Shown: positions 15,358 to 38,379, numbered from the stretch's first letter. The stretch is 64,000 nt of DNA from Acidobacteriota bacterium (GCA_040755995.1 JBFMAF010000027.1:1-64000), one strand, 5' to 3'. Translations and numbers: made by a program. The notes: generated from the letters alone by a model not told the origin.

Positions 15358-15916
15358 GGAGGGCGTACATGGCGTTCTGGATGGAGTTCTTCAGCTGTCT
15401 TTGATCGACACCCATCAGCTCGCAGATCTCCTGGTATGAATGACCCGCCAACTTGAGCAGGAGGCAGGTCCGTTGATCCGACGGCATTGCTGCTATTAGC
15501 GAGTGTATCTGCTGCCAAGAGGCGCCAAGCTCCTGTTCCGAGGTCCCGTGGGCTCCCGGGTCCCAACTGGATCCCGGGTAGTACCTGCTTCTAACATCCT
15601 CTTCATAGAGCCGCCTCGTCCTCTCCTTACGCTTCGTGTCTCTGAACGCGTTCACACATATCGTGCAGAGCCAGGGGAACATGTCCCCCTCGGGCTCGCT
15701 GCCTCTCTTGATCGCCGAAAACGTCCTCAACATAGTCTCCGAAAATAGATCCTCGGCCTCGTTCTTCCGACCCGCCAGTCGCAAGGCGAATGCGTAAACG
15801 CGCTGACCGTAGGCATCATAGACTCGCGCGAACCTTTCTTGATCGTCGCCCGCTTCGCCTTCGATCGGCCGTCCTTCTCGACCCGTGCTCCCGCTATGCA
15901 TAACGCGCGGCCCCAT
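15332..15916 (-). CDS. ECF (sigma-70 group 4) RNA polymerase sigma factor
   Basis: Region 2 AEDLFSETMLR...WLCTICVNAFRD; region 4 MPSDQRTCLLLKLAGHSYQEICELMG. Confidence 0.9.
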   Translation of the reverse strand: MGPRVMHSGSTGREGRPIEGEAGDDQERFARVYDAYGQRVYAFALRLAGRKNEAEDLFSETMLRTFSAIKRGSEPEGDMFPWLCTICVNAFRDTKRKERTRRLYEEDVRSRYYPGSSWDPGAHGTSEQELGASWQQIHSLIAAMPSDQRTCLLLKLAGHSYQEICELMGVDQRQLKNSIQNAMYALRARFSHRK

Positions 15917-19249: not shown

Positions 19250-19265
19250 TGGCACGCAATTTGCA
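19250..19265 (+). promoter_or_regulatory. sigma54 (-24/-12) promoter
   Basis: TGGCACGCAATTTGCA, a perfect TGGCACG-N4-TTGC match, 50 nt before the decaheme gene. Confidence 0.85.
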
Positions 19266-19314: not shown

Positions 19315-20427
19315 ATGGACATGGCAGATTACAGACTAATCACCGGCATCACGATGGCGTCCGTCTCCCTCGCGACCGTGCTCATCGCGGGCACCACTGA
19401 GCGCACCCCGGCAGGCACCACTGAGCGCACCCCGGCATCTAGGCCCGGCTCCGGCAACCTCGGACCGTTGCCCCAAGCAGAGGCGGCTTTCACATCGCAC
19501 GCTCCCTATGAGACCGGCGACTGCGGACTCTGCCACAAGCAATCGGATCCGCGTGCCTCGGGAGCTCTCGCCCGCCCCGTGGCCGAGCTGTGCCTGGGCT
19601 GTCACGAAGACTTCAAACAGGTGTTGAGCAGGAGGTTCGCGCATGCGGCGGCCGAAGACAGCTGCGTGAACTGTCACAACCCGCACAATTCGAAACAGCC
19701 GAAGCTGCTCCTCGCAGACCCGAAGGGCCTCTGCCTAGGCTGCCACGACTCCATCAAAGATCTGGCGTTGCGCTCGAAGGTCGTGCACGGTGCGCTGTCT
19801 ACCGGCGGCAAGTGCGCGGGCTGCCACGACCCCCACGGGTCCGAGATTGAGCATCTCTTGCTCCGGCTCCCCTTCGACCTCTGCGTGAAGTGTCATGCCC
19901 AGGACGGTCTTCTCGACACGCAGGGGAAGGCTCTTACGAACATGAGGAAGCTGCTGGACGAGAACTCCGTCTGGCACGGACCGGTGAGCAACAAAGATTG
20001 TACTTCATGCCATGACCCGCACGCCGGATCGCTGTTCCGGATGCTCGCCGCGGAGTATCCGCCGGAGTTCTACGCGCCGTACGATCCGAAGCTCTATGCG
20101 CTCTGTTTCACCTGTCACAACGAGCAGATGCTGGCGACCCCGGAAACCACCACACTCACCCAGTTTCGCGACGGCGCGCAGAATCTGCACTACCTGCACG
20201 TGCGCCGATCGGAGCGAGGGAGGACGTGCCGGGCCTGCCATGAGGTGCACGCGTCGAAGCAGCCTCATCAGATTCGCGACGGCGTGCCCTACGGATCAGG
20301 TGGATGGATTCTGAAGACCAACTACCGAGAGACACCGGAGGGCGGGGTCTGCGAGAAGACGTGTCACGCGACCAAGACCTACGTCAACACGGCGCCTTCA
20401 CCTGGGACTCGGCCATCGACGGAGTGA
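19315..20427 (+). CDS. Decaheme c-type cytochrome (doubled-CxxCH, DmsE/MtrA-like relay type)
   Basis: 9 CxxCH plus C-terminal CEKTCH (Cx3CH); CxxCHxPH repeats; N-terminal hydrophobic segment. Confidence 0.9.
   Translation: MDMADYRLITGITMASVSLATVLIAGTTERTPAGTTERTPASRPGSGNLGPLPQAEAAFTSHAPYETGDCGLCHKQSDPRASGALARPVAELCLGCHEDFKQVLSRRFAHAAAEDSCVNCHNPHNSKQPKLLLADPKGLCLGCHDSIKDLALRSKVVHGALSTGGKCAGCHDPHGSEIEHLLLRLPFDLCVKCHAQDGLLDTQGKALTNMRKLLDENSVWHGPVSNKDCTSCHDPHAGSLFRMLAAEYPPEFYAPYDPKLYALCFTCHNEQMLATPETTTLTQFRDGAQNLHYLHVRRSERGRTCRACHEVHASKQPHQIRDGVPYGSGGWILKTNYRETPEGGVCEKTCHATKTYVNTAPSPGTRPSTE
19390..19437 (+). repeat. Perfect 24-bp tandem duplication (GTTERTPA x2)
   Basis: GGCACCACTGAGCGCACCCCGGCA occurs twice, at 19390-19413 and 19414-19437. 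Confidence 0.95.
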
Positions 20428-21478: not shown

Positions 21479-22237
21479 TCACTTGAGGTGACAGGTGTTG
21501 CACAATGCGCTGTTCTGATTCGGCTTCCTGAGGAAGGGGAAAACGTCGGGATCGTGCACATTGTGACAGGAAGGGCATTCGATCTTCCCTCCGTACAGCT
21601 TCACATCGTATGACGAGCTGCCGCCCCACCCCGTCATGGGGTTATCGGGCGCAGTGAAATCGGGATCCAATGCAGGAGTCGGGTAGATCATTCCTATGGG
21701 ATGGTCATTCCGGAGGTCAGTTCCCAAGTATGACATCAGTGCGTCGTGTCCCCAGGTTCCGTCGTGGCACATACTGCAGGTCGCGCCAGAAGCGGGATCA
21801 GGGTCCATCCTCCAGTGGGCAGGCGCTGCCGGAATGCCGTACCACGGACCACCCAGGTTGGCGCCGCTGCCGGGGGCGTTCAGTACCTCATCGACAGCGA
21901 TCGTTCCATCGTGGCACGACAGGCATGCGAGAGAGTATCCACCGGGCTGACCGGGGGTTGAATCCATAGTCGGGCTCGAATACAAGGTATACGACTGGCT
22001 GGGCGTCCTATGATTCCACAGCGGCGCATCGATCAGGGTAGTCGCGCCGTGCGGCGTATGGCAGTACACGCAGACCTCCCCGTAGTTGTTCATCGTGTTG
22101 GGATGGATGAGGTTGGCCGGTATGACATGCGTCAGGTCATGCTTGGTACCGACTACTGTTCCGGAGAAAATCGGCACAGCGGCCACAGCCGCAACCGCCG
22201 AGACCACCAGCCACAGACGCATCCGGTTGGCTCTCAT
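21479..22237 (-). CDS. OmcE-family extracellular cytochrome, 5-heme variant (paralog A)
   Basis: Signal MRLWLVVSAVAAVAAVPIFS; GTKHDL, EVCVYCHTPH, PLWN, SLACLSCHDG, extra CSMCH, LGTDLRNDHP, IECPSCHNVH, PFLRK, SALCNTCHLK. Confidence 0.88.
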   Translation of the reverse strand: MRANRMRLWLVVSAVAAVAAVPIFSGTVVGTKHDLTHVIPANLIHPNTMNNYGEVCVYCHTPHGATTLIDAPLWNHRTPSQSYTLYSSPTMDSTPGQPGGYSLACLSCHDGTIAVDEVLNAPGSGANLGGPWYGIPAAPAHWRMDPDPASGATCSMCHDGTWGHDALMSYLGTDLRNDHPIGMIYPTPALDPDFTAPDNPMTGWGGSSSYDVKLYGGKIECPSCHNVHDPDVFPFLRKPNQNSALCNTCHLK

Positions 22238-22280
22238 CGTACACGACGCCCTGTGCATATACCACGCACATCGCGTATCA

Positions 22281-22296
22281 AGCAAATTCTGTGCCG
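22281..22296 (-). promoter_or_regulatory. sigma54 promoter for the 22237 cytochrome
   Basis: Minus strand CGGCACAGAATTTGCT (GG-N10-GC). Confidence 0.75.
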
Positions 22297-22403
22297 GGAG
22301 AATGCATTCCCCGCAGGGGGTGCACACAACTGCGATTTCAACGAGATATCGGCAGTCACTCCGTTCCCAAACCAGCGGTGGCGTGTTCGGAGTATTTCGG
22401 GAC

Positions 22404-22440
22404 TGCGCGAAATCACGCTCAAAGTGGGTGAAAATGCACA
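22404..22440. promoter_or_regulatory. Tandem candidate enhancer-binding-protein sites
   Basis: TGCG-CGAAATCA-CGCT (22404-22419) and TGGG-TGAAAATG-CACA (22425-22440), 21 bp apart. Confidence 0.5.
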
Positions 22441-22734
22441 GAAGGCACCGGGCAGAGCCGGGGATGCCTGGGTTGCCACCGGTTGACCGCTCTGCGGGCA
22501 CCAGGCGCGATTCCGCAGACGTGTTGGAGGATCGGGGATCATGCCGTTTGAATCGCAGTGAATCCAAGCAGTCCGATGAGGACGGCCCATGATCAGGGCA
22601 TCGAGGGCGGAGGGTATGCCGAGATGTTGCGGCATCGTGCTTGCATACCTGAAGGTGTATGCTGGTCAGGTGGTCGTCGCCCAACGGGGCAATGCATTTG
22701 TCAACACGGAGTTGACTACACTGAGCCGACTCGA

Positions 22735-25005
22735 ATGACTTGCGCCGTGAACCGGTCCAGACGCCTCGCCACTGGCGGACTTCCGCTCGTCGGTCTCACC
22801 CTGATGATCGCGTGGCTTTCGTTTCCAAGAAGACCCAGCGTGTTCCCGCTGGACGATGCGTATATCCACCTATCATACGTCAAGAACCTAGCGGAAACGG
22901 GGGCACTGTGTTTCAATCCGGGTGAACCAAGCATCGGCACATCGAGTCCTCTGTGGGTAGCATTCCTGGTCCCATTCTACCTGGCCGGACTCGACATGTA
23001 CTGGACCGTGCAGCTCACAAACCTCTTCCTTCTTGGTCTACTGAGCTATCTGGCGATGGACATCACGAGGACCATCGCCGTTTCGTTCTTCCAGACTGAG
23101 GGCGAGGCCATGCCCTGGTCGTTCCTCGGCGGTCTCCTGCTTGTTCTGAACGGGAACGTCCTCTGGTTCGCTCTGAGCGGCATGGAAACGATGCTCTACC
23201 TCTGCACCTGTCTTCTCGCGATCAAGCTCTACCTCCTGCGAGGATTCGATTACATCACCGGCTTGACATGCGGTCTCGTGTTTCTGGCTCGTGAGACTGG
23301 AGTGGTACTGGGACTGGTCTTCCTAGTGGCCGACTCTTCGAGCAGGCGATTCTTGCGGCTCTTCAGAGGAGCAATGGCAATGCTGCTTGTCATATCTCCT
23401 TATCTTTGGCTGACGGTGCGGGTTACAGGCGGATGGTTTCCCTCGACGGCGAGAGGCAAGCTGGCCTCCTATGTCGACGGAGGGCTCGATTGGCAACGGA
23501 TACCCAGGACCGATCTACATGATGACCTCGCAATCCGAAACCTGATCGAGAAGCGGGTATTCGAGGAAGACCCAACGTCTCGCGATTATGTGCTCTTTTG
23601 CAGAGACGTGAAGACTGAGTCCGACCTGAGCCAGCGTCTGCGGGCCGCGGGTATCTCCGAAAGTGAGGAGTTCCTGGCTGAGTGGCGCCTCACGCATCGG
23701 AATCACATATACTGGTATTTGAAGACGGTTCTTCTCTACCAGAAGTACCAGCCGCAGAACCTGCTGCTGATGGCAGTTCTGTGTGCCTGGCTCATTCATC
23801 TCATCTACACTTCCTCGCGGCGATGGCGAGAGACAAAGAAGCTCCTCACCGGTCGACTCGTGGGTTGTTCCGTGTTGATTGCATGGGGATTTCTGCATCT
23901 CTCGCTTCACGCGGTCGGCTTTCGCACTCTGCTTCATCACACCCGATACCTTGCTGACGAGTACCTCATCCTCGCCATCGCCGGATCGCTGGGTTTCATC
24001 TGGCTTCACAGACGATACACGCGCTCCGCGGCGCTCCTCGCCGGTGTCGCCCTCTTCACGAGTGCAGGCGGACTCTTCTACTGGCGGGACGTATATGCTC
24101 ACGACATCAAGCATATGGATGACGTGTATGTTCGGATGGGAGACTGGATAGAGAGAAATACACCGGACGATGCCAGGATCGCAGCCTTCGACATCGGGGT
24201 ACTCCGCTATGTCGGGAATCGTTATACGATAGATCTGGGCGGACTAGTCGATGCAAACGTCGTTCCGTATCTTGCCAGGAGGGAGTGCGGGGAATATGTC
24301 CGCCAAAGAAGAGCCGACTACATTCTCTATTCTCGTAACCTCGAAGTTGACTACTTCACCGGCCTCTATCTGGCAGAGTACGAGGGAAGGAGACTGCTCA
24401 AGCAAGCACCAGTCGTTCATTTCGATACGTCACAATACAGTGCCCCCACTCTTACTCATTCTTTTCGATTGGATTTGACCCGGATCGCTGGGTGGCTCGA
24501 CCCAACGATCGACGGGATTCAGCGGGCTTTTTGCTATGATGGACGTCCATACCAGGTGATCAACGAAACCGTCGATAATAGACTCGAGTTCGTTGGATAC
24601 TCCGTGGACCAGCGGGCGATCGAGCTCATTCCTTACTATCCCTACGGAACAAACGTGGTCTTCTTCTTCAGAGCTCGCCAGCGCCTGAGCCACCTCTACT
24701 GGGTGCACCTGGCCCTGTTTGATTCCGAAGGCCGCGTCTTCTATCTGTTCAGTCACATACCCACCCACAACTTGCTCCCCTATGACCAGTGGCCGGTAGG
24801 TCAGCTAGTTCAGGAGCACCACATACTGTTCGCTCCGACCCCAATGCCGAGAGCGAGGTTCCACATCAGGGTGACTGTCAACAGGACCCCTTTCCTCGAT
24901 AGATCTCGCCTCGGTGAGCTTGCCTGGTACGAACTCGGAACTTACGAGAATCTCGGGAACGCACTTCATCCAATGGACCATCAAGAACTGATGTGCTTTC
25001 CCTGA
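22735..25005 (+). CDS. GT-C fold membrane glycosyltransferase
   Basis: LDDAYIH after the first TM; FNPGEPSIGTSSPLW; SGMET; LARE; multiple TMs; IAAFDIG...IDLGGLVD C-terminal domain. Confidence 0.8.
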   Translation: MTCAVNRSRRLATGGLPLVGLTLMIAWLSFPRRPSVFPLDDAYIHLSYVKNLAETGALCFNPGEPSIGTSSPLWVAFLVPFYLAGLDMYWTVQLTNLFLLGLLSYLAMDITRTIAVSFFQTEGEAMPWSFLGGLLLVLNGNVLWFALSGMETMLYLCTCLLAIKLYLLRGFDYITGLTCGLVFLARETGVVLGLVFLVADSSSRRFLRLFRGAMAMLLVISPYLWLTVRVTGGWFPSTARGKLASYVDGGLDWQRIPRTDLHDDLAIRNLIEKRVFEEDPTSRDYVLFCRDVKTESDLSQRLRAAGISESEEFLAEWRLTHRNHIYWYLKTVLLYQKYQPQNLLLMAVLCAWLIHLIYTSSRRWRETKKLLTGRLVGCSVLIAWGFLHLSLHAVGFRTLLHHTRYLADEYLILAIAGSLGFIWLHRRYTRSAALLAGVALFTSAGGLFYWRDVYAHDIKHMDDVYVRMGDWIERNTPDDARIAAFDIGVLRYVGNRYTIDLGGLVDANVVPYLARRECGEYVRQRRADYILYSRNLEVDYFTGLYLAEYEGRRLLKQAPVVHFDTSQYSAPTLTHSFRLDLTRIAGWLDPTIDGIQRAFCYDGRPYQVINETVDNRLEFVGYSVDQRAIELIPYYPYGTNVVFFFRARQRLSHLYWVHLALFDSEGRVFYLFSHIPTHNLLPYDQWPVGQLVQEHHILFAPTPMPRARFHIRVTVNRTPFLDRSRLGELAWYELGTYENLGNALHPMDHQELMCFP

Positions 25006-25015
25006 AGCGACCCCA

Positions 25016-26365
25016 ATGAAGAAACTCAGGATCGTCGCTGCCGCGCTTTGTTGGCTTGGCTCCACCGGTTCGGCTCCGTTGCACTGTGCCGCACACCCCA
25101 ATGTCGTGCTGATAATCATCGATACCTTACGCGCGGATAAGCTCGGGTGCTACGGGTCCAGGGAAGACACTTCTCCGGAACTGGACGGATTGGCAGAAAT
25201 GGGAATTCAGTTCACCAAGATCTATGCTCAGTGCAGCTGGACCCGTCCTTCAGTGGGTTCCCTGCTCACATCGCTCTACCCTCGGTCAATCGGCCTGTAT
25301 GGTGGTCATCCTGGGGAGAAGCTGCATGACTGCTACTCGACTCTACCCGAGATCCTCAAGGCCCGTGGGTACTACACCCTCGGCATTACTGCGAACCCGA
25401 CCATCAACACCATCTTCAATCTTGATCAGGGGTTCGATGAGTACATCGACAGCGATGTGGTCTGGGATTGCATGCTGGGGCTGGAAAAGGGCAAGAAGGA
25501 GTACAAACCGGATGTTGTCCCGCTCCCGAATTCAGAGCGTATCTTCAGGACAGTCCTGGATAGGGCCAGGGCCATCTCGAAGAGGCCCGTTTACCTACAG
25601 ATCAACGTCATGGAGGTTCACGAAGGTTGGCGCTTGATCAGGCCGGAGTTCAAGAACATCTTTGCGAACCGCCCATTCCACTGGTACCTTGAGGCCGTCA
25701 GACAGACATCGCTTGACGTGCACCGCTTCGTCACGGAATGGCTGTCCATCCCCGGGTTTCAGGACACCTTGTTTGTGATCACGAGCGATCATGGGCAGGG
25801 ACTGGATGACCACCCACATGTTGCGAACTCACAGGATCACGGGTATCTCTTGTATGAATCCCAGCTTTCGGTGCCCCTCATTCTCTACCATCCCTCCGGT
25901 GCGTGGGAGCGGGGGAAGAAGATTGACCGACCTGCGAGGTTGATGGATCTCATGCCCACGATCCTGGACTACCTTGATATCCCCTGCCCTGATAATATCC
26001 AGGGGATTTCCTTGCTGGAGTTGATATCGCATGGGAGCTCGTCTGTGAGCTTGCCGGAGTACTTCGTGTCTGAGACGTATTTTGACGGGAGTGAGAAGCT
26101 CGCTGTCTACTCCGGACGATGGAAGTATATTGAGAATCGAGATTCTCAAGAAGGCGTGAACAAGGTTGAATTGCAGCCGATCGGAGTCAAAGAGGACGGT
26201 GCACTGACCGACCAGATTCGCGAGAACGACGGAATCCGCCGGGCGATGCGGGCATTTCTTGAATCATGGGAGTTGTCTTTCCCCAGGGCGGAGGGTACTC
26301 CCGCCGATGGGAAGTTCAGGGAGGAGGAGATTCAACAGCTGAAGTCTTTGGGCTACCTGGACTAG
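25016..26365 (+). CDS. Exported alkaline-phosphatase-superfamily (sulfatase-like) enzyme
   Basis: PNVVLIIIDTLRAD, SWTRPS, ITSDHG, HG..LYE...VPLI, DLMPTILD, QLKSLGY. Confidence 0.88.
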   Translation: MKKLRIVAAALCWLGSTGSAPLHCAAHPNVVLIIIDTLRADKLGCYGSREDTSPELDGLAEMGIQFTKIYAQCSWTRPSVGSLLTSLYPRSIGLYGGHPGEKLHDCYSTLPEILKARGYYTLGITANPTINTIFNLDQGFDEYIDSDVVWDCMLGLEKGKKEYKPDVVPLPNSERIFRTVLDRARAISKRPVYLQINVMEVHEGWRLIRPEFKNIFANRPFHWYLEAVRQTSLDVHRFVTEWLSIPGFQDTLFVITSDHGQGLDDHPHVANSQDHGYLLYESQLSVPLILYHPSGAWERGKKIDRPARLMDLMPTILDYLDIPCPDNIQGISLLELISHGSSSVSLPEYFVSETYFDGSEKLAVYSGRWKYIENRDSQEGVNKVELQPIGVKEDGALTDQIRENDGIRRAMRAFLESWELSFPRAEGTPADGKFREEEIQQLKSLGYLD

Positions 26366-26458
26366 GAACTCCCAGATGGCTGAATCCTGAGAAGGCGTGG
26401 TGAGCATGATCGTGCGGCTCTTGCAGAGGGGGCGACGCGATCCCGTCGAGCCGCCTGG

Positions 26459-28219
26459 GTGGCGCACCAGCCGAGTCGCGACTGTAGGTGGGGAGTCGTC
26501 AGTCCCGTGGTGAATCGCAAACCCGTTGCCGGGAGCACGAATCGCATAACCCACGTCCAGCGCAACGTTTCCATATTGTGGGTTGTCATGCTGTCAATTG
26601 GAGCGTACTACCCTGGTCTCCGCGGTGGGTTTGTCTGGGATGATTGGACTCTGATTGTCGAAAACGATTCTGTCAGATCGTGGAGCACGCTGAGAGAGAA
26701 CCTCACCTCAGACTTCTTCTACTTCGGCCAGTCGCCTTTGCTGAGCCAGAAGCGGGGTTACTATCGCCCCCTGATAACGCTTTCCTACATGGCGGACTAC
26801 GCTCTGTGGAAGCTCGACCCACGCGGCTTTCATTTCACGAACATGGTGCTACACGCCGCGGCCTCGGCCTCGCTCCTCCTGGTGCTGATCCGACTGCTTT
26901 CTGGACAACCGTGGATCGCGGTTCTGGCTGCTGCGCTCTTCAGCGTACATCCGATCCACACCGAATCGGTCAGCTGGATCTCCGGGCGAACCGACGTCAT
27001 GGCGGGCCTGTTCTTCTTCGCTGCGCTCTACTCCTACCTCCGCGCGCACCCACCGGACCGATGCGGCGCTCAGAAAGCGCCCGGATTATGGACCGGCTGC
27101 GCCGTGCTCTCTTTCGTAATGGCAGTCCTTAGCAAGGAGACCGCGATCGTGCTGCCCGCCGTCCTCGCGACATACGAGTACTGTCTGGGCCCATTCGATC
27201 TTGAGAGGGGATGGCGAGCCTCATTGAGAAGGCTGAGCCCGTACGCTATTGTGGGCATCGCCTATCTGATCGTGCGCTTCATCGTGCTCGGTGTGAGGGC
27301 GCCAACTAACGAGTGGGTGGCGGCCCAAGGCACATGGGCGATCTCCGTGACTTCGCTCAAAGCCATCGGAATCTACGCATCAAAGCTGGCTGTTCCGTGG
27401 CCGCTGTGCGCCTACTATCAGGCGCCGATAACGCGTGACCTGCTTCAAGTCGGTGTCTTGATCCCCTTGGTCGTCCTTGTGGGCCTGGGTATCTTCTTCT
27501 GGCAGCGCGGAAGAGGGCGCGGATTGCTTCCCCTTTCGTTCCTATACTTTCTCCTGACGCTGCTTCCAGTCTCGAACATTGTTCCGATTGGCGCCCCCAA
27601 GGACATGGGCTTCCTGATCGCAGAGCGGTTTCTGTACGTTCCCTCGGCAGCGTTCTGCGTTCTCGCTGCATGGGCGCTGAGCCGGGCGGCCGGCGTTCTG
27701 CCACGAGGGCCCTGGGCGCCGCATCTGGCGGGCGCTGCTTTTGCAGTCCCTGTGCTGGCCGCCTATCTCGTGCTCACGATTGCTAGAAGTTCGGTGTGGC
27801 ACGATGAGATTACATTCTACACGGAGACGTTGCGGCACGCCCCCGATGCCGGTCTGCTCCACTATGTCCTCGGAATTGCCTACTGGGAGGCCGGCGAAAA
27901 GGTGCGTGGCAAGGCCGAGATGGAGGAGGCATTGCGGTGCAATCCGGCGGCATCGTGGGCTCACAACAACTTGGGAAACATGTTGTTCGAAGATGGGAAC
28001 GTTGCCGGGGCGGTTCAGCAATGGGGGGCCGCAGTGCGAACCGATCCGTCGAACTGCCAGGCGTGGTTCAACCTGGCCAGAGCGCTGGACCGGTGGGGAC
28101 TATCTTCACAGGCCGCCGTTGCATACCGATCTTTTCTCAAGAGCGCCCCGACCTCGCTGGGCGTCTACATCGCGATGGCAAAGTCCCGCCTGAGAGCGCT
28201 CGGCCAGGACACTCGCTGA
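26459..28219 (+). CDS. TMTC-like GT-C protein O-glycosyltransferase with C-terminal TPRs; start uncertain
   Basis: GGFVWDD, YYRPL, HPIHTESVSWISGRTD, LSKE, AERFLYVPS, VWHD, then TPRs. Confidence 0.88.
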   Translation: MAHQPSRDCRWGVVSPVVNRKPVAGSTNRITHVQRNVSILWVVMLSIGAYYPGLRGGFVWDDWTLIVENDSVRSWSTLRENLTSDFFYFGQSPLLSQKRGYYRPLITLSYMADYALWKLDPRGFHFTNMVLHAAASASLLLVLIRLLSGQPWIAVLAAALFSVHPIHTESVSWISGRTDVMAGLFFFAALYSYLRAHPPDRCGAQKAPGLWTGCAVLSFVMAVLSKETAIVLPAVLATYEYCLGPFDLERGWRASLRRLSPYAIVGIAYLIVRFIVLGVRAPTNEWVAAQGTWAISVTSLKAIGIYASKLAVPWPLCAYYQAPITRDLLQVGVLIPLVVLVGLGIFFWQRGRGRGLLPLSFLYFLLTLLPVSNIVPIGAPKDMGFLIAERFLYVPSAAFCVLAAWALSRAAGVLPRGPWAPHLAGAAFAVPVLAAYLVLTIARSSVWHDEITFYTETLRHAPDAGLLHYVLGIAYWEAGEKVRGKAEMEEALRCNPAASWAHNNLGNMLFEDGNVAGAVQQWGAAVRTDPSNCQAWFNLARALDRWGLSSQAAVAYRSFLKSAPTSLGVYIAMAKSRLRALGQDTR

Positions 28220-28259
28220 TGGCAACGCCAACATACTGGCCCCGGCTGCGCGCCGATGG

Positions 28260-28275
28260 TGCGTGAAAAGACCCA
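28260..28275. promoter_or_regulatory. Candidate enhancer-binding-protein site
   Basis: TGCG-TGAAAAGA-CCCA, about 105 nt upstream of the sigma54 promoter. Confidence 0.45.
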
Positions 28276-28378
28276 CGTCTGGGACCAGGCGACGCTCGCT
28301 GCATTCCCATGGAGTGCGGCTGCGGGCATTATCAACTAGATACGGCTGCGAAGTCGACGCGAATCGGTGACTGGACCG

Positions 28379-28394
28379 TGGCATCCGATTTGCA
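28379..28394 (+). promoter_or_regulatory. sigma54 promoter for the 28421 cytochrome
   Basis: TGGCATCCGATTTGCA (GG-N10-GC). Confidence 0.8.
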
Positions 28395-28420
28395 TAGATG
28401 AGGGTGTAGGGGAGGTATAG

Positions 28421-29095
28421 CTGGTCCGTCGAATCGCCTTCTTTCTCGCGGCTCTCTTGGTCGCCGTCGCGCAAGGCCCGTCCACCAGGGCGGACAGCGT
28501 CGTGGGATCCAAGCATGATCTGAGCACCGCCTGGACACCCGAGCCCTGTGCATTCTGCCATACTCCGCACTTCGCCAATACGAGCATCGACGCCCCGCTG
28601 TGGAACCGGACCATCGGGAGCGTCACGTTCACGCCGTACCAGAGCCCCACGATGGACACGGTGTGCCCGAGCGTGCCCAATGGGCGGTCGCTCGCATGTC
28701 TAGGTTGCCACGACGGAGTCCTTGCCAATAACGACAAGCATGATCTGGTGAATGCCCCCGGGCCCGGCGGCATGCCCGACACGTCATCGTGGCCCAATTG
28801 TTACAGCTGCCACCCGGACATCTACGGCGATCCGGCGATCACCTGGATCGGCACCGATCTACGAGATGATCATCCCATCTCGATGACATATCCGACCCCC
28901 GCTCAGGATCCGTTCTTCAATACTCCGCCTGATCCGATCATGGGATGGGGAGGCGCCGGCGCAGGGGACGTAAAGCTGTACGATGGCAAGATCGAGTGCG
29001 CATCGTGCCACAATGTGCACGATCCCGCCTATGTGCCATTTCTGCGCAAGCCCAATAGCAACAGCGCGCTCTGCCTGACCTGCCACATCAAGTAG
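28421..29095 (+). CDS. OmcE-family extracellular cytochrome, 5-heme variant (paralog B); probable CTG start
   Basis: GGAGGT RBS then CTG gives signal (M)VRRIAFFLAALLVAVAQGPSTRA; GSKHDL, CAFCHTPH, CLGCHDG, extra CYSCH, IGTDLRDDHP, CASCHNVH, SALCLTCHIK. Confidence 0.88.
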   Translation: MVRRIAFFLAALLVAVAQGPSTRADSVVGSKHDLSTAWTPEPCAFCHTPHFANTSIDAPLWNRTIGSVTFTPYQSPTMDTVCPSVPNGRSLACLGCHDGVLANNDKHDLVNAPGPGGMPDTSSWPNCYSCHPDIYGDPAITWIGTDLRDDHPISMTYPTPAQDPFFNTPPDPIMGWGGAGAGDVKLYDGKIECASCHNVHDPAYVPFLRKPNSNSALCLTCHIK

Positions 29096-29150: not shown

Positions 29151-30974
29151 TCAGCGCTCGGCAGTGGTGCGGATGCCGCCTCGGGCTGCTCCGTAGCTCT
29201 TGGGGTCGTGGTCCTGGTCGTGGCAGGTCAGGTAGCACCTCCCCGTCCTGTCGCCAATGTCTTCGAACCGCAAGATGCCAGTCCGGCTGGGAGTCACGAA
29301 TCGGAGGTCGAAGTTGATGAGGTTGCTGTTGTTGGTCGGATTGCCCTGTGCCGAACTGATGCCGTGCGGATCGTGGCAGATCGAACACGGAGTGCGCTCA
29401 TCCACGATGTGCATCCGATGTTCGGCGAAGGACGTATCGGCAAGTACGCTTGTCCGGCTGTGGCAGCGGTAGCACAGGGCGTACACTGTGCTTGATTCCA
29501 CCTGGTACTCGCCGTCCATCTCGTATCGGCTCTGGAGCAGGTGCTTGTAGATGGACCCGTGAGGGCCGCGAGGTCCCGTGCCCCCCGCGCCACGGCTGTT
29601 GTCGTTGTCGTGACAGTCGCTACAGTACATGATGCTGTCGGTAGTCCAGGGAGGCACGAGACTCGGGACTGTCCTGTTCGCGCCGCGAGCTTCGACCGGA
29701 TGGTACGCAGGGTTGGAGGGATCGAACAAGAGCCGCATGTTGAACTGCGGCTGCTGCCGCGCAGGATACGGGGGCCATGGAGACCCCCCCGGTTGAGGCT
29801 TGTTGGCCGAGTCCCCGTGGCACTTGAAGCAGATCTCGTACTCATTGACAGAGGGTGGCAGGCCGGCCGGCGGCACCAGAGTGCCGCTGTGATTGATGCC
29901 CCAGACGCCCGCGAGAGCGCCTGAGCCCTTCGGAGCCGATGACGAGTAGTCGTAGGCGGCGTGTGGATTGTGACAGTCTGGGCACTCCGCATGCCTTGGC
30001 GCCGTTGCGGAGAGCTCGGGCATTCGGTAAATGGGATTCATGGGCGACTCGGATTCGTCATGAGACGAAGGGGTCAGCCGGTAGGTCGGGTGAGTGTACG
30101 CCTTGTTGAACTCCGTCGCGATATCATAGTCGGCCACGTTGCTGCCGCCGTGGCACTGCAGCCCTGCGCTCGTTCCGCACGTCGCCTCCTCCTGCCCCTT
30201 CAGCACCCGTTGACCCGTGGTGGCCGAGTGCGGCTTGTGGCAACTCTCGCATCCGTTCGTATCGACCGCTGTGTAGCCGGTATGAGCCCCCTGCAGAGCC
30301 GAGTAGAGTTTGGGACTGTTCTGATGACTGCTCGGATTCTGAGCCCAATACTCCTTCTGATGACAGGTCACGCAGAGCGCAGAAAACCGGTTCTCCTTGA
30401 CGAGGAATTTCTTCATCGTCGTGTCGTTGTCCTGCTCATGCGGATCGTGGCAGCTCCGGCACTGGAGGTTTCCGTTCGCATCCAATTTCACCTTGTCGCC
30501 CGCGGGTGGATCGACAGTCTCTCCACCCGTCACCGGGATGAAGGAAAACGGATGATCGTTGCTGACGTCCGTGCCAAGAACCGACGCACCAGTGAGGCGT
30601 CCCTGTGGATCGGTGCCGCTGAGAGTGATGCTGCCGTTGTTGACGGTGCTCCCCAGCGCCACCGTGCCGTCGTGACAGCTCAGGCAGAGCTTCGAGGACC
30701 CATTCGGCTGCCCGACCACGGCCTTCATCGTCGTACTCCCGTAAGCGCTGTACGTCACACCTGATGACATCGCGTGGTTCCAGAGAGGAACAACGGGGTT
30801 GGCCGTATGTGGCGTGTGGCAGAAGATGCAGATCTCATCTTCGGCGATCGCACGCACCGGTCCGGGGCCGGCGATTGAGAGGTTATGCTTGTTGGCAGGA
30901 TCCGAGACCCCTACGCCCCAGAGAACCAGGCTTCCTGGCAGGAGGAGGAGTGGCACGAGGAGCATCCGCCTCAT
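29151..30974 (-). CDS. 12-heme cytochrome c: OmcE-like N-terminal tetraheme module plus 8-heme extension
   Basis: Signal peptide; 10 CxxCH plus CGTSAGLQCH (Cx7CH) and CYLTCH (Cx3CH); KHNLS, EICIFCHTPH, LGTDVSNDHP, SALCVTCH. Confidence 0.9.
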   Translation of the reverse strand: MRRMLLVPLLLLPGSLVLWGVGVSDPANKHNLSIAGPGPVRAIAEDEICIFCHTPHTANPVVPLWNHAMSSGVTYSAYGSTTMKAVVGQPNGSSKLCLSCHDGTVALGSTVNNGSITLSGTDPQGRLTGASVLGTDVSNDHPFSFIPVTGGETVDPPAGDKVKLDANGNLQCRSCHDPHEQDNDTTMKKFLVKENRFSALCVTCHQKEYWAQNPSSHQNSPKLYSALQGAHTGYTAVDTNGCESCHKPHSATTGQRVLKGQEEATCGTSAGLQCHGGSNVADYDIATEFNKAYTHPTYRLTPSSHDESESPMNPIYRMPELSATAPRHAECPDCHNPHAAYDYSSSAPKGSGALAGVWGINHSGTLVPPAGLPPSVNEYEICFKCHGDSANKPQPGGSPWPPYPARQQPQFNMRLLFDPSNPAYHPVEARGANRTVPSLVPPWTTDSIMYCSDCHDNDNSRGAGGTGPRGPHGSIYKHLLQSRYEMDGEYQVESSTVYALCYRCHSRTSVLADTSFAEHRMHIVDERTPCSICHDPHGISSAQGNPTNNSNLINFDLRFVTPSRTGILRFEDIGDRTGRCYLTCHDQDHDPKSYGAARGGIRTTAER

Positions 30975-31969
30975 CGGCTCTCCTTCAGGTACTCATATAC
31001 CTGAATCCTTCTGTTGGCCGAGTCGGCGACGCAGATCCGGTCGTCTTGAATCGCGATTCCGGTTGGCAGCCAGAGATCCCCCTCTCCTGAACCAGAACCG
31101 CCGAAGAAGAGCAGGAGCCTCCCCGATTCATCGAAAATCTGTACGACGTCGTGCAGCCCCTCGACAACGTAGATGTTCCCGTCGCTATCGACGGCGATTC
31201 CCTTGGGGCGGTTGAAGTCGCCTGAACTGTCGCCCAGCTTTCCGAACGACGATATGTACCGGTTCTGCGCGTCGAAGATCTGCACGCGGAAATTCATGCT
31301 GTCGCAAACGTAGAGCCGCCCGCCCGGTCCCGTCGCGATATTGGTCGGGAAGTTGAATTCGCCCGGCCCTTTGCCGTGGGCACCGAACTGCCCTACTATC
31401 TTCCCGTCCCTGGTGACCGACACGATCTTGTTGGCCAATGTGTCTACCACGCGAAGCTGATCTCCCACCACGGCGAGACCCGTGGGTCGCCGGAAGCCGG
31501 CCTCGGCCCCTATTGTCCACAGTTCCCGGCCTTTGGGGTTGAGACATACGAGCCGCCTCCGGGCCGAATCGGTGACGTACAACCGGTCGCTTCCAGCTGC
31601 CACACCGATGAGCGAATCACCATCGATGCGCATGTTGGAGTAAGCGTTCTTCGGGAGGTCGTAGACGTGCAGGCATCGTCCGAACGTGTCGGCGACAAAG
31701 AGCCGGCCGCCCGGTCCCAGACAGACGCCGTAAGGCTGAGTCATCACGTACTGCTTCTTTTCACCTGATATCAGTCCCCACAGCTTGCTCAGAAAGGAAG
31801 GCTTGCCTCCCGCTTCGGCCGGTGTGATAGAGCGGACGAACCGAATGCGCGGGTGTTCGGGTGGTTCGGGCCAGACCGTCTCCGCGGCGACGCTTCGTGC
31901 GAGGATGAGCGCCATTAGTACGGGCAGCCGGCGGCAGCCGGCCATCCTCTTGCGGCTCATGGCGCTCAT
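30971..31969 (-). CDS. NHL-repeat six-bladed beta-propeller, exported
   Basis: VWPEPPEHPRIRF; repeated FNxPxGIAV...IYVxDxxNxRVQIF units. Confidence 0.92.
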   Translation of the reverse strand: MSAMSRKRMAGCRRLPVLMALILARSVAAETVWPEPPEHPRIRFVRSITPAEAGGKPSFLSKLWGLISGEKKQYVMTQPYGVCLGPGGRLFVADTFGRCLHVYDLPKNAYSNMRIDGDSLIGVAAGSDRLYVTDSARRRLVCLNPKGRELWTIGAEAGFRRPTGLAVVGDQLRVVDTLANKIVSVTRDGKIVGQFGAHGKGPGEFNFPTNIATGPGGRLYVCDSMNFRVQIFDAQNRYISSFGKLGDSSGDFNRPKGIAVDSDGNIYVVEGLHDVVQIFDESGRLLLFFGGSGSGEGDLWLPTGIAIQDDRICVADSANRRIQVYEYLKESR

Positions 31970-34017
31970 ATGAGGAATCCGAACCTGCGAGTAACCCGAA
32001 AGAGTATCTGATTGCCGACGAAGCCTGTGCTGGTCTGTTTCTCTGTGACGATCTGGTCCAGAGTCGAGTAGCGATGTTCGACGCCGAATGTGAAGAGTCG
32101 CAACTGGTAGTCCAGCTTGGTGTAGATCCGGAACCCCTGCTGGTCCAGATACCCTGGCAGTGCGATCGCTTCGCGCCGCGCGGAAACCGACGTCCGAAGA
32201 CCGCCGAAGAAGATCCCCGCGAATTCGAGGCCGAGGTACCGGTTGCGATCGATCCCCGCGTCCGTCCGGTTTCGGAAGGCGCCGGCGGAGACGGCCAGCG
32301 TGCAGAGCCGGCCAACGTTGACCTGAACGTCGGCGTTCAAAGCACGGGCCTCGTAGTCAGTCAGAGTGTCGCCCTGGCCGCGCGTCGTCTCCGACCGCTC
32401 CCAGCTCACCTGAAGGGTCGTCTTCCAGAACGTCTGGCTTCGCGCCGAAGCTCTGACTCGCTCGAGATCGTAGTTGCCTAGACTGAGCAGCTCATCGGTC
32501 GCTTTGCCGCGTTCGTAGCTCGCGTTCACATTCATGATCTTGAGCGCGCCTGTGGACATGTTGGCTCTTCCGTTCCACGATGTGCTCACCCCATCCCTGC
32601 CGCTGACGTCGCGGTTCCAACCTCTTCCTACATCATACCCCACAACCGCCTGGATAGAACGGAGTGGCAGGTTGTAGGTAACACCGGCTCCAACGGTGCG
32701 CATGTCCACGCTGGAGTCCCCCGTGTCGGTCTTCTGGTTGCGGCGGCCATACCCGGCGCGGGCATTGAGACCCAAACCACGGACCGGGAAGTAGGTGTTC
32801 GTTGTCGACACGAACACCGCCCCAGTATCAGCCGTTGCCGACCTTCCCAGTTCCAGGCTCGTCGCGACACTCGTCTGCAACTTCTCGGCCGTCTGATAGG
32901 ACAGGTTGGCTGTCGCGTAGTAGAGCCTGTACCCGCCTGGAGTTTCTGGCTGGAGCCCCCCGTCACCGGTCTCAGTCATATGCGGCGGGATGTCAAAGAG
33001 CGAGTAGGTATCGAGGTATCCGGCCTTGACCTGGCCCCTCGTTCTCGGATTGAGCGTTGCGAGCAGCTCATAGCTGAGGTCATTGTACCTCGTCCTGAAC
33101 GCAGTGCTGAGCTCATTGTCATAGGCCTGCCTGTGGAATCTGAATGTGCTCCGCGTCCGCTTCGTCTCTTGTGTGGCTGTAAGATCGAGATTTGTACCCC
33201 GTTGAAGGACCTTGTCGGAACCAGCTTCCTCCGTATCCGAGTCCCTGCGATAGGCCAGGTGTATCATGGGCAACTTCTCCTCGTCCAAGTGCCAGTTGAC
33301 GCCGTAGGATGACAGCCGGATCTTCACGTCGGGGTACGTGGCCCCGGGCGGGAGCGGGATTCCGCCTCGAATGGGGCTGGACGTTGGGTAGTTGCCCGTC
33401 TCGGTCCCGAACGTGCGCCGCGCGAAAATCGAAAGGGGAAAAGGCCGAGAAGGGAAGAAGTTACCGTTGAGTTTGAATCCAACATCGGATGCGCCGCTGT
33501 CATCGCCGGCAAGCGACAGGCCTGTCTTCCTGAAAATAACGCCCGCGGTGTACTGGAGGAAGCGGGGATCCCAGGCGACCGATCCGTAGTTCAAGTCGTA
33601 GCTCTGGACGAAGGATCGATTCACAGATCGGGTCCCATCAGTGTCGAAGACCGAGTGCCCGAAGCTCCAATCGGCACTGCCATTCAGGTACTGAGCATCG
33701 AGCCGGCGGGGCCAGCCCACGAGAGCGATGACGACGGCAACCAAGAGCCAGGCGTGCAACCACTCAAGAGCACGGCACAGTCGCGTGACCGCGGCCGGAG
33801 GAGGAGCGCAGACGCGAGCTACAGTCAGCCCACCGCCCGGCACACGTGAGGCATCCTCCGGCAACGAATCCGAGCGAGAACGCTTGAGGCTGAGAAGAGG
33901 TTGCCATCGGGAGCGGTGCGTCATTGGCCCCGAATTCCCACGGTTTTCACTCCCGACCTTCGACCGTGGACTCTCGACGCGAGGCTGCGCCGCGCCCGCA
34001 CCAACCGCGGCCTGCAT
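31966..34017 (-). CDS. Large outer-membrane beta-barrel (porin/secretion channel); true start probably downstream
   Basis: Signal-like WLLVAVVIALVGWPRRLDA; alternating aromatic/Gly beta-strand pattern throughout; C-terminal ILFRVTRRF. Confidence 0.75.
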   Translation of the reverse strand: MQAAVGAGAAQPRVESPRSKVGSENRGNSGPMTHRSRWQPLLSLKRSRSDSLPEDASRVPGGGLTVARVCAPPPAAVTRLCRALEWLHAWLLVAVVIALVGWPRRLDAQYLNGSADWSFGHSVFDTDGTRSVNRSFVQSYDLNYGSVAWDPRFLQYTAGVIFRKTGLSLAGDDSGASDVGFKLNGNFFPSRPFPLSIFARRTFGTETGNYPTSSPIRGGIPLPPGATYPDVKIRLSSYGVNWHLDEEKLPMIHLAYRRDSDTEEAGSDKVLQRGTNLDLTATQETKRTRSTFRFHRQAYDNELSTAFRTRYNDLSYELLATLNPRTRGQVKAGYLDTYSLFDIPPHMTETGDGGLQPETPGGYRLYYATANLSYQTAEKLQTSVATSLELGRSATADTGAVFVSTTNTYFPVRGLGLNARAGYGRRNQKTDTGDSSVDMRTVGAGVTYNLPLRSIQAVVGYDVGRGWNRDVSGRDGVSTSWNGRANMSTGALKIMNVNASYERGKATDELLSLGNYDLERVRASARSQTFWKTTLQVSWERSETTRGQGDTLTDYEARALNADVQVNVGRLCTLAVSAGAFRNRTDAGIDRNRYLGLEFAGIFFGGLRTSVSARREAIALPGYLDQQGFRIYTKLDYQLRLFTFGVEHRYSTLDQIVTEKQTSTGFVGNQILFRVTRRFGFLI

Positions 34018-34040
34018 CGAGGGACTGAGGTGCAGCCTCG

Positions 34041-35024
34041 CTAGTGACTCTTCGCGAGGGCCGGGACAGCGGGGCTCTCCTTGACATCATAGACTTCGAT
34101 GCGCGCGGCGGAGCGCAGTCGCCGAGTCCACGCGTCGTTCATCTCCGAGCAGCGCTTCGACGTGAGATCGGTCTTGAGCTTCTCCTTGACTTCGTCGAAG
34201 GTCTTCTGCTGGGCCGGGCGGATCTCGGCCAGCCGGAACAAGTGGAAGCCATAGATGCTCTCGACTACATCGCTCAGGTCCCCGGGCCTCATTTGGGCAA
34301 ACACCTTTTCGAACTCCTCCGCCATGCTCCCGCGATGAATGAACCCCATATCACCGCCCTTGTCCTTGCTGGGATCGGTCGAGTACTTCCGCGCGAGATC
34401 CTCGAAGGAGACCCCGGAACGGATCTGCTTCAGCAGATCCGCTGCTTTCGTGCGAGCCTTCTCCCAGTCAGCCCTCGGCGCTGCAGGAGCTACTGAGATC
34501 GTGATGGCGAAGAGATGCAGCTGCTCTGGGGTGACAAATCGTTGAGGATTCGACTTGTAGAACTGGGCCGTCTCTTCATCGGTCACAGCGCACTTGAGAC
34601 CCACCGCAATGTCGTAGGCCCTCTTCACCAAGAGGACCCGCTCGATGTTACGCCGGAGATCATCAAGCTTCGCCCCGGATTCCTTCATGGCTTTTTCGAA
34701 TGCCTGCTTGCTGCCGTAGTGGGCAACGAGCCGGTCGATCCCGCGACTGACCTCCTCTTTCGGCACCTTCAGGCGCTGCCTTACCGCATCCTGATACTGC
34801 AGCTCCTCGTCGATCACGTTCTGGAGCGCCTTGCTCCGGATCTCAGCGAGCTTCTCCACACTCACGTTGCGGTGAAAAGAGGCGATCGGCATCAACGCGT
34901 TCATGGCCGAAGTAAGCCTGTCCAGGGCGATGGGCGCACCGTTCACACGTGCGACCACGACGGGAGGTGTCGCCTCTCCCGAGGACGGCAGCGCCGTCAA
35001 CAACAAGAGAGCAATGAAACGCAC
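34041..35024 (-). CDS. SurA/PrsA-like chaperone with PpiC peptidyl-prolyl isomerase domain
   Basis: Probable GTG start and signal; VVARVNG; SFEDLARKYSTDPSKDKGGDMG; VVESIYGFHLF. Confidence 0.92.
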   Translation of the reverse strand: MRFIALLLLTALPSSGEATPPVVVARVNGAPIALDRLTSAMNALMPIASFHRNVSVEKLAEIRSKALQNVIDEELQYQDAVRQRLKVPKEEVSRGIDRLVAHYGSKQAFEKAMKESGAKLDDLRRNIERVLLVKRAYDIAVGLKCAVTDEETAQFYKSNPQRFVTPEQLHLFAITISVAPAAPRADWEKARTKAADLLKQIRSGVSFEDLARKYSTDPSKDKGGDMGFIHRGSMAEEFEKVFAQMRPGDLSDVVESIYGFHLFRLAEIRPAQQKTFDEVKEKLKTDLTSKRCSEMNDAWTRRLRSAARIEVYDVKESPAVPALAKSH

Positions 35025-35050
35025 AGCACTAATATGCCACAAAACAGACA

Positions 35051-35075
35051 GGGAGTGAACTGTCAGTTCACTCCC
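35051..35075 (-). terminator. Intrinsic terminator/attenuator between the omcE-like gene and the chaperone
   Basis: 11-bp stem GGGAGTGAACT / AGTTCACTCCC followed on the minus strand by TGTCTGTTTT. Confidence 0.7.
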
Positions 35076-35095
35076 CTCCTGGACCCCGATCAGAA

Positions 35096-35839
35096 CTACT
35101 TGATGTGGCAGGTAGTGCAGATCGCACTTGTGGCGTTGGATTTGCGAAGGAACGACCCCTGCGTGTTGTTGTGAGGATTGTGGCAGCTTCCGCACTCGAC
35201 CGTTGCCGATGCCGCCGCCGCCCCGTAGAGGGGCAGATCGCCGGTGCCGGACGCCACGTAAATCTTGGACCCGACCTGAGTCTCGGTGACGAACTCAGTC
35301 GGCGTGGCGAGTCGCGCCGTCTGGTAGATGATCGTTATAGGGTGGTCGTTGCGAAGATCGGTCCCCATCGCGGGGATGCCACCGGTCATCAGGTTGTTGG
35401 ACCCTGGAGCGACGTTCCCATAGGTGGCCTTCGCCGCCCCCTGTACCGTGAATGCAACGGCCGGGCCGAAGGCGGCGCCGTTGAGGTTGACAAGAACGTC
35501 AACCGCGATGCTCCCGTCGTGGCAACTCATACAGGCTCCCGAAACACTGCCGGCGATCTGCGCGGAACTCGGCGCGGCAGCGTCCATGGTCGAGCTGCTG
35601 TAGACCTGATAAGTCGATGTCACGTTGTTCCGGTTCCAGAGTGGAGCCGTCGAGTTCAGGTTGGCACCGTGCGGCGTGTGACAGAAGACGCACGTCTGCC
35701 CGTTGATGGATGCGTTGCCGTTTCTGAGTGCCGAACCGGCGCTGAGATCATGAGGCCCCGTGGCGATCGTTGCCTGTGCGAACCCCGTCGCGGCCGCCAA
35801 CAGCAGTGCAGCGGCAACCGTTAGAATCTGTCTCCTCAT
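35096..35839 (-). CDS. omcE: OmcE-like tetraheme cytochrome (candidate nanowire subunit)
   Basis: GAGGAGG RBS; signal MRRQILTVAAALLLAAATGFA; PHDLS, QTCVFCHTPH, PLWNR, YSSSTM, CMSCHDG, GTDLRNDHP, LPLY, TVECGSCHNPH, FLRK, CTTCHIK, the motif order I recall for Geobacter OmcE. Confidence 0.85.
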   Translation of the reverse strand: MRRQILTVAAALLLAAATGFAQATIATGPHDLSAGSALRNGNASINGQTCVFCHTPHGANLNSTAPLWNRNNVTSTYQVYSSSTMDAAAPSSAQIAGSVSGACMSCHDGSIAVDVLVNLNGAAFGPAVAFTVQGAAKATYGNVAPGSNNLMTGGIPAMGTDLRNDHPITIIYQTARLATPTEFVTETQVGSKIYVASGTGDLPLYGAAAASATVECGSCHNPHNNTQGSFLRKSNATSAICTTCHIK

Positions 35840-35916
35840 TATTAGTCCTCCTCTCATGGCGGGCTTACAGCACCACGAGCCACACGTGCCTGGAAGCCGC
35901 CTTCGCCCAGTATCCA

Positions 35917-35932
35917 TGCATTTTCAATGCCA
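35917..35932 (-). promoter_or_regulatory. sigma54 promoter for the omcE-like operon
   Basis: Minus strand TGGCATTGAAAATGCA (GG-N10-GC). Confidence 0.75.
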
Positions 35933-36087: not shown

Positions 36088-37170
36088 TCAGTGGCCCAAG
36101 GACTCAGCCGCCGATTCCCGAATGTACTGAAAAACCTGCACCCGGGAATTGCCCTGGTCCGCGACATAGATGCGGTCCTGATCGTCCACGAAGAGCCCGG
36201 CCGGCAGGATGAACTGTCCGGGTCCGCGCCCTGGCAAGCCTACAAAGAGGAGAATCGCCCCCTGGGAGTCGAATATCTGGAAGTTGTTGAAGGATGCGTC
36301 CGCGACGTAAATGTGGCCTTCGCTGTCCACGCCTACTCCCTTCGGCCGGTTCAGACATCCGGGAGTATCGCCCTGCTTGCCGACCTCACGGATGAAATCG
36401 CCCTCGGGACCAAACACCTGTATTCTGAAGTTGAGCGTGTCGGCAACGTAGAGCTGGCTGTGACGGTCGACGAAGATGTTGGTAGGGAAGTTGAACTTGC
36501 CTGGGTCGACACCGCGCTCACCGATGGTCCTGATGAAGCTCCCGTCAGCGCTCGAGTAGCACAGCACGATGTGCTTCTTCGAGTCGGCAACGTAGAGCCG
36601 CTTGAGCTGCCTGTCGATGGCCATTCCAGACGGGTTTTCGAGCTCGCCTTCACGCCCGATAGCGATGGCGAGACCCCCATCGGGTCCATAGCCGAACACC
36701 CGGTTTAGAGTCGCATCAGCCACGAAGACCATGCCTTCATCATCCACCGCCACTCCGATCGGCTTGGCAAGCCTCCCTTGCCCTTCCTCGCCCACGAAGT
36801 CCACGTCTCGTGCGACAGGATCGAATCGAAAGACCCGGCGCGCCGCCGTGTCCGTCACGTACACGCGTCCAGTGACGTCGGCTGCCACGCCATACGGCTT
36901 CACGAGCACTTCGATCGCGCGTGGCTGCTCAGGGCCAAGCAGCATGGACTTCCACCTGGACTGTTTCTGGCCGAAATCGCCCACGCCGCGATACGTTGTG
37001 AGGTACTTGATACGCGGGCGTTCGGGGGGCAGCGGCCATACCAGGTCTGTGGGTTTGGCCGAGGGCTGCTTGGGCTTCGCGGGACCGCAGACATCCAGCA
37101 GGCACAACCACGCAGTCACCACAACCAGAAGCCCGACAGCACGCCCAGCTCGGTCACTCATGGTGCCCAT
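36088..37170 (-). CDS. Second NHL-repeat beta-propeller, possibly a lipoprotein
   Basis: LVWPLPPERPRIKY; NHL repeats (GKFNFPTNI, LNRPKGVGVDSEGHIYVAD); hydrophobic N-terminus with Cys. Confidence 0.92.
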   Translation of the reverse strand: MGTMSDRAGRAVGLLVVVTAWLCLLDVCGPAKPKQPSAKPTDLVWPLPPERPRIKYLTTYRGVGDFGQKQSRWKSMLLGPEQPRAIEVLVKPYGVAADVTGRVYVTDTAARRVFRFDPVARDVDFVGEEGQGRLAKPIGVAVDDEGMVFVADATLNRVFGYGPDGGLAIAIGREGELENPSGMAIDRQLKRLYVADSKKHIVLCYSSADGSFIRTIGERGVDPGKFNFPTNIFVDRHSQLYVADTLNFRIQVFGPEGDFIREVGKQGDTPGCLNRPKGVGVDSEGHIYVADASFNNFQIFDSQGAILLFVGLPGRGPGQFILPAGLFVDDQDRIYVADQGNSRVQVFQYIRESAAESLGH

Positions 37171-37182
37171 CGGACATCACCC

Positions 37183-38253: not shown

Positions 38254-38379
38254 CCGGTTCCAGCTATCCGGCCCGGCCCCCGGTAGGCCGCGCGGCCCCA
38301 TCCTCCGCGAGCCAGTCGATGGGCACGTCATCTCAGCCACCACCGGGTCCATCCTGAGTGCGCCATCGACCCATTATAC

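Follow-up and report, generated by a model that had tools for sequence, protein, structure and literature searches.

Two OmcE-like cytochromes with a fifth CxxCH motif beside a tetraheme OmcE gene cluster in an Acidobacteriota bacterium

Three OmcE-like genes and their neighbourhood

Does the additional CxxCH motif of two OmcE-like cytochromes from an Acidobacteriota bacterium bind a fifth heme, and what might such a heme do in a cytochrome wire? The question arises from a stretch of 64,000 nucleotides (GCA_040755995.1 JBFMAF010000027.1:1-64000; hereafter the window), in which a six-frame scan returned two frames with five CxxCH motifs, P0001 and P0002, and a four-motif paralog, P0003. The genome encodes only these three paralogs of OmcE length, in addition to the OmcE-like start of a 607-aa cytochrome. 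P0001 (21479..22237, minus strand; 252 aa with a signal peptide and 14 His) starts at an ATG at 22237 and has the motif order KHDL, CVYCH-TPH, CLSCH, CSMCH, GTDL-DHP, CPSCH-NVH and CNTCH-LK. The order in P0002 (28421..29095, plus strand; 224 aa) is KHDL, CAFCH-TPH, CLGCH, CYSCH, GTDL-DHP, CASCH-NVH and CLTCH-IK. No in-frame ATG was found upstream of its first motif, and a CTG at 28421, 5 nt 3' of GGAGG, yields a normal signal peptide; the Atlas record of this protein begins at residue 28, without the signal peptide. The N-termini of both proteins are hydrophobic and align with those of the OmcE proteins 7TFS and 9YUQ, the signal peptide being read from the sequence. P0003 (35096..35839, minus strand) is a tetraheme OmcE with 8 His, holds the main operon slot and is the likely major subunit.

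The first-pass annotation had placed in both five-motif proteins the four OmcE-type heme motifs, the N-terminal KHDL His, the DHP His and the CHxK end, and all of these lie in OmcE register in the sequence alignment. The extra motifs that it saw between motif 2 and GTDL are likewise there (CSMCH, C154-H158, at 21764..21778 on the minus strand in P0001; CYSCH, C127-H131, at 28799..28813 on the plus strand in P0002), and the loop at this position in P0003 has no Cys and no His, in keeping with the heme-free loop claimed for it. This account of the loops was sound for the motif and overlooked the extra His that accompanies it. The term "inserted" fits a real motif but not a simple insertion: the loop measures 68 aa in P0001, 57 aa in the heme-free P0003 and only 52 aa in P0002, so the heme appears to have been built into an existing loop. 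The similar C-terminal halves and differing loops that had been described were recovered as 58 identical residues of 81 from GTDL on (47% identity overall) and as two loop subfamilies. That the C-terminal halves were duplicated recently or homogenised by gene conversion is ruled out by the divergence of DNA and codons: the DNA is 68% identical and 30 of 56 common residues are coded differently, so the likeness reflects conservation between old paralogs and not a recent copy.

The tetraheme gene belongs to a cluster on the minus strand with the order dodecaheme paired-CXXCH cytochrome (37183..38373), NHL beta-propeller protein (36088..37176), P0003, SurA-like PPIase (open frame at 34041..35195, the true start probably lying downstream), probable large outer-membrane beta-barrel (open frame at 31966..34017), second NHL beta-propeller protein (30971..31969) and the 607-aa cytochrome, which has 10 CxxCH and an N-terminal OmcE-like domain and converges on P0002 (29151..30974). 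With its two NHL beta-propellers and its 12- and 10-CxxCH cytochromes, 29151-38373 is of the cluster type described for OmcE (PMC13712944). The barrel frame had no Pfam match at 0.001 (OMP_b-brl, E 0.68), and its Atlas look-alikes included outer-membrane and porin clusters (0.98, 0.94), a recognition below the tool's trust line. A 12-pair hairpin with a T-rich tail lies directly 3' of the tetraheme gene (35050..35076, minus strand); among the terminator-like sites listed, a strong hairpin follows the stop of P0003 and of no other OmcE gene. P0003, with four motifs, thus sits in the NHL-OmcE-PPIase/barrel slot, and P0001 and P0002, with five, lie outside it. Between them, also outside the operon, are genes for a membrane protein, a sulfatase and a TPR membrane protein (22558-28219, plus strand), which we presume to resemble membrane glycosyltransferases. 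The 815-aa membrane protein had no Pfam match. The same trio also follows a type A ortholog (see below) in locus L118. OmcE clusters are accompanied by glycosylation genes (PMC13712944). A nine-CxxCH paired-CXXCH cytochrome is encoded at 19315..20427 (plus strand).

The extra motif and its histidine in relatives

A database survey of the fifth motif, as the first-pass annotation had suggested, found it widespread among the listed relatives, in two loop subfamilies. All of the best 120 of 2461 matches to P0002 have five CxxCH. With P0001, 6313 of 8000 scored candidates matched; 99 relatives were newly listed and a further 20 listed were already P0002 matches. P0001 and the 99 comprise 91 proteins with five CxxCH, eight whose loop has a CX3CH besides four CxxCH in the protein, and one fragment. 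The nearest named relatives among the matches listed have 80% identity and carry the NCBI label Acidobacteria. By sequence, the P0001 and P0002 loops represent two widespread subfamilies, which we call types A and B. In type B, a second KHDL-like word stands about 20 residues upstream of the motif; its His (His107 of P0002, 28739..28741, plus strand) and the motif at the CYSCH position are each present in 121/121 aligned proteins. For type A, 78 sequences were chosen by eye from 100; C154, C157 and H158 are found in all 78, and a His in the column of His141 (21815..21817, minus strand) in 75, located after an N-x-PG word and mostly 8-17 residues before the motif. A further His after the fifth motif of P0001, its eleventh (His164, 21746..21748, minus strand), is partly conserved (42/78 in its column, 60/78 when counted alignment-free).

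The same picture emerged from a pooled set of 397 distinct proteins and locus translations, from which 4 unclassified ones were dropped. A His ahead of the extra motif occurs in 98/100 type A, 150/150 type B and 22/22 third-branch proteins (270/272 in total), and the loops of tetrahemes contain any His in 15/111 cases and Cys in 2/111. P0001 and P0002 also retain all four OmcE distal His in the alignment, and the His count of P0002 is exactly 10 for five hemes. With a conserved His of its own and ten His in P0002, the fifth motif very probably represents a real bis-His heme in both proteins, for which His141 and His107 are the candidate distal ligands. The heme count is read from sequence, which leaves room for a motif without heme (a disulfide, a zinc site or chance); we regard this as highly improbable, given that the two Cys and the His are invariant and joined by a dedicated His in hundreds of relatives and that Cys is so rare in tetraheme loops.

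The two subfamilies differ in the spare His after the motif, which is present in 66/100 type A proteins (P0001 included) and in 9/150 of type B. Placed six residues past the motif in P0001 and in many type A proteins, it might act as a swappable ligand (His164 in P0001), so that the exposed fifth heme would be a catalytic, sensing or metal/mineral-binding site and not an electron exit; the CX3CH variants in the loop of 9/100 type A proteins would fit such a role as well. The invariant distal His of type B, the scarcity of the spare His there and the lack of any catalytic motif seen make this a very unlikely explanation.

The fifth motif is also found elsewhere in the protein, namely after DHP (L016:7487-8248, L047:372-1181, L145:6050-6724) or right after motif 3 (L028:10889-11638, L089:565-1302). 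These five sequences nest in a supported tetraheme clade, which implies repeated gain of a fifth heme. As to the loop heme itself, two independent gains in types A and B found no support: trees built on 135 core columns left the two types mostly without resolution, and a single A+B clade was not rejected (p-AU 0.84), the constrained tree being better by 60 log units.

Fold and probable position of the extra heme

In a PDB sequence search with P0001 and P0002, the only matches were 7TFS (OmcE of Geobacter sulfurreducens) and 9YUQ (OmcE of Desulfuromonas soudanensis WTL), at E 3e-25 to 1e-18. Four CxxCH and four distal His are in register with these proteins, which share the fold and the same kind of gene cluster; P0001 and P0002 differ from them in adding a fifth CxxCH and a His, in the loop that makes the bundle contacts of 9YUQ, and in having their genes outside the operon slot, which the tetraheme holds. 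An apo AlphaFold2 model of P0002 from the type B alignment reached a pLDDT of 88.5 (71-93 in the loop) and a pTM of 0.80. It matched 7TFS with a Foldseek E of 1.6e-10 and, in a structural alignment, with Z 13.0 and an rmsd of 3.0 A over 169 residues. Among 48,161 chains, the second-best had Z 3.2. On the evidence of this model the OmcE fold is kept in P0002. The P0001 model was weak (pLDDT 62.9), and its sole fold match was again 7TFS (E 7.4e-5).

When P0002 is aligned to 9YUQ, the fifth motif falls in the loop just before D138. The inter-filament contacts of 9YUQ are made by T128-A131 and N134-A137, in loops that rotate out of the subunit (PMC13712944); residue counting in our alignment reproduces T128, A131, N134 and A137, and the fifth motif aligns just before these residues. 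Its place beside the contact loops would put the heme on an outward loop, and an off-axis branch heme there is, indirectly, well supported. The position of the motif between the two paired-CXXCH halves of the sequence could also suggest a heme that follows heme 2 and precedes heme 3 along the wire axis and lengthens the subunit instead of branching it. Residues 31 to 223 of the P0002 model, however, align to 7TFS as a single body, the tetraheme has a longer loop than P0002, and published models retain the four-heme core (PMC13712944); an in-line heme is thus quite improbable.

The first-pass annotation had likened the branch heme to the exposed heme of OmcZ and knew of no described five-heme OmcE filament. 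The conserved His, the retained OmcE fold, the correspondence of the loop with the bundling loop on the outside of 9YUQ and a published AlphaFold3 prediction all favour the branch heme. The implied novelty is not supported. Petersen et al. (mBio 2026, PMC13712944) noted many OmcE-like proteins with an extra CxxCH, uncharacterised and possibly a new family of OmcE nanowires, and their AlphaFold3 models of the five-heme class have a conserved core and an extra heme that is more solvent-exposed, as in OmcZ; the same statements appear in a 2025 preprint (bioRxiv 10.1101/2025.10.22.684050), and pentaheme OmcE homologs are mentioned in PMC11492766. Their class and our proteins have in common the OmcE-like sequence, a similar length and five CxxCH; the hosts of theirs are mostly uncultured, and their main text makes no mention of Acidobacteria. 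The five-heme class is therefore known in print as a prediction; the loop subfamilies, distal His, mapping to the contact loop, operon position, pairing with the tetraheme and promoter motifs are added here, with the proviso that the figures or supplement of that paper may list these proteins or loop types. In our literature search, which covered few subscription journals, an experimental study of a five-heme OmcE was not found, nor were the points on slot, promoter and bundle loop. The likeness to OmcZ of G. sulfurreducens (exposed heme 6; PMC9473688) is one of proposed principle only, a single off-chain heme per subunit: OmcZ has eight hemes and no inter-subunit His ligation, matches P0001 and P0002 in neither sequence nor fold, and was absent from the matches of all fold searches with the two models.

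Operon slot, promoters and a possible role in the wire

To what extent pentaheme genes stand outside the operon slot was tallied for the distinct OmcE-like proteins of loci L001-L188, leaving out proteins already under a protein id. Barrels were recognised in this tally by BLAST with the barrel of the window as query, a search that more distant ones escape, and a good number of the contigs were short. On this basis a PPIase or barrel gene directly follows 34/111 tetrahemes but 1/65 pentahemes; an NHL gene before and a PPIase or barrel gene after were found for 18/111 and 0/65, respectively. We also surveyed stretches from 58 partly related genomes that had been selected among pentaheme-profile matches (25 from the same phylum, 32 of the 43 matched genomes around a gammaproteobacterial locus, and 1 of 2 Desulfobacterota). 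In these stretches, 38 of 40 pentaheme genomes also have a tetraheme; of the two exceptions, G514 has a tetraheme candidate cut by a contig end and in G668 none was found. A genome of the same family (G001) has two tetrahemes and seven pentahemes. Its pentaheme paralogs are dispersed (L115-L121), most with a sigma-54-type motif upstream. A sample at the level of Desulfobacterota gave matches in 2/401 genomes at E 1e-45, with 6 candidates scored per genome, and a contig scan with a single-protein query gave 4 loci only.

Sigma-54-type (-24/-12) motifs were called with what we take to be the sigma-54 consensus, in a pattern composed after viewing the upstream DNA. Six matches to this pattern occur in the window, where 1.5 would be expected; 1/100 shuffles reached six. 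Five of the six matches have coding-strand orientation and stand immediately upstream of the nine-heme gene (19250..19265, plus strand), P0001 (22281..22296, minus strand), the membrane protein gene (22630..22645, plus strand), P0002 (28379..28394, plus strand, 26 nt before the CTG) and P0003 (35917..35932, minus strand), which suggests that these genes may form one regulon; RpoN is encoded in the genome. The match at 22630 falls within the frame annotated at 22558-25005, for which it indicates a later start, near 22735. Across the loci, the motif lies upstream of 9/45 pentahemes (the window's two included), 24/128 tetrahemes and 0/27 TPH-less genes, compared with 0.3, 1.0 and 0.1 in shuffles. 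A sigma-70 scan returned 3 sites against 4.7 by chance, Rfam had no match in 15000-42000, and a single 21-nt match, between orthologs, came out of BLASTN with the upstream regions.

The position outside the slot, together with the pairing with a tetraheme, leads us to read the pentahemes as secondary subunits beside a tetraheme wire, and we consider the following scheme rather probable. P0001 and P0002, secreted and with the four-heme OmcE core intact, would receive their hemes from the cell's cytochrome c machinery (two PF01578 proteins, of cytochrome c maturation, are encoded in the genome) and would be exported and assembled by the neighbouring barrel/NHL/PPIase machine. The main wire subunit would be P0003; the pentahemes would be switched separately and would stack head-to-tail through their OmcE core, by themselves or together with P0003. 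Ligated by H141 or H107 and carried outward by the loop that links motif 2 to GTDL-DHP, the fifth bis-His heme might then serve as a side exit from an insulated wire to minerals, electrodes or a neighbouring filament. One point against the secondary-subunit reading is that it does not account for His164 of type A. This spare His accords better with proteins that do not build the shaft but occupy only a wire end, as tip or anchor, or serve as shuttles, either free or bound to the surface. In an anchor, one His would be expected beyond twice the number of hemes, in a tip more exposed hemes, and an exposed-heme tip candidate is not encoded in OmcE operons (PMC13712944). The out-of-slot genes, their near-constant pairing with a tetraheme, the spare His of 66/100 type A proteins including P0001 and a gammaproteobacterial branch described below would be in line with an end piece or shuttle. 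Both window proteins, however, keep the four distal His and thus show no bar to polymerisation, P0002 has no spare His, and the seven paralogs of G001 are many for a single cap, so that we hold this alternative to be unlikely for the two proteins of the window.

Insulated wires (OmcS, OmcE) and leaky ones (OmcZ) have been defined (PMC9473688, PMC12954529), and a five-heme OmcE would unite both types on one scaffold. More tentatively, the pentahemes might even be the missing minor subunits of OmcE/Uet wires, with sigma-54 promoters of their own and co-assembly with the tetraheme, in which a heme on the filament-joining loop could bridge the gap of at least 25 A that blocks transfer between bundled wires, the TPH-less branch providing a dedicated end piece; we advance this with considerable reserve. 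If it were true, the ratio of subunits could tune a wire from insulated to leaky. Within 20 kb the locus brings together a tetraheme, pentahemes of the two main loop types and the likely export machinery, and so offers a compact case for testing. It bears on questions raised in PMC13712944, i.e., how wires are tipped or ended, how electrons pass sideways in bundles and whether five-heme proteins polymerise, the surprise being limited by the prior publication of the class as a prediction. As for the Uet cluster (Tenderiales, Gallionella; UetA tetraheme, UetB PPIase, UetC barrel, UetHI NHL, UetJ undecaheme), the cluster of the window fits its gene order but lacks triheme genes, and the likeness concerns gene order only, not the UetA sequence. 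The gene order of gammaproteobacterial loci L170-L184 fits the published Uet list as well. At L169-L184 and L211-L230 the order tetraheme, PPIase, gap, trihemes, NHL, NHL and 11-heme is that of Uet, which would imply, from gene order only, that UetA is an OmcE homolog.

In the gammaproteobacterial branch of type A, 22/22 proteins lack the TPH His (three residues after motif 1) and 22/22 have retained the spare His, which stands six residues past the fifth motif. If the repeats of paired-CXXCH proteins are a guide, the next subunit would most likely borrow the TPH His; a TPH-less protein would in that case form a chain end, and the branch is a candidate wire end piece. TPH-less pentahemes were seen at loci L002, L057, L077, L151-L152, L154-L156, L158-L163, L165-L167, L174, L180, L182, L183 and L185; most genes of the branch have an NHL gene behind them and are oriented away from triheme genes. 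Some tetraheme OmcE-like genes are without the TPH His too (L033:6148-6753, L050:3163-3768, L028:11764-12432) and lie in OmcE clusters beside a normal tetraheme. A type A pentaheme at L168:9514-10482 has lost the His of its fourth motif and is possibly decaying.

Other features were observed in passing. A frame of 1550 aa elsewhere in the same genome (C32:52143-56795) contains 60 CxxCH, and one of 2754 aa with 63 motifs adjoins a tetraheme OmcE in G1169 (L187:10476 onward). In the window itself, a 1667-aa subtilase with Ig repeats has a CHAT-TPR protein on either side (327-14249), and an ECF sigma factor and a probable anti-sigma factor are encoded downstream of this region (14518-15916).
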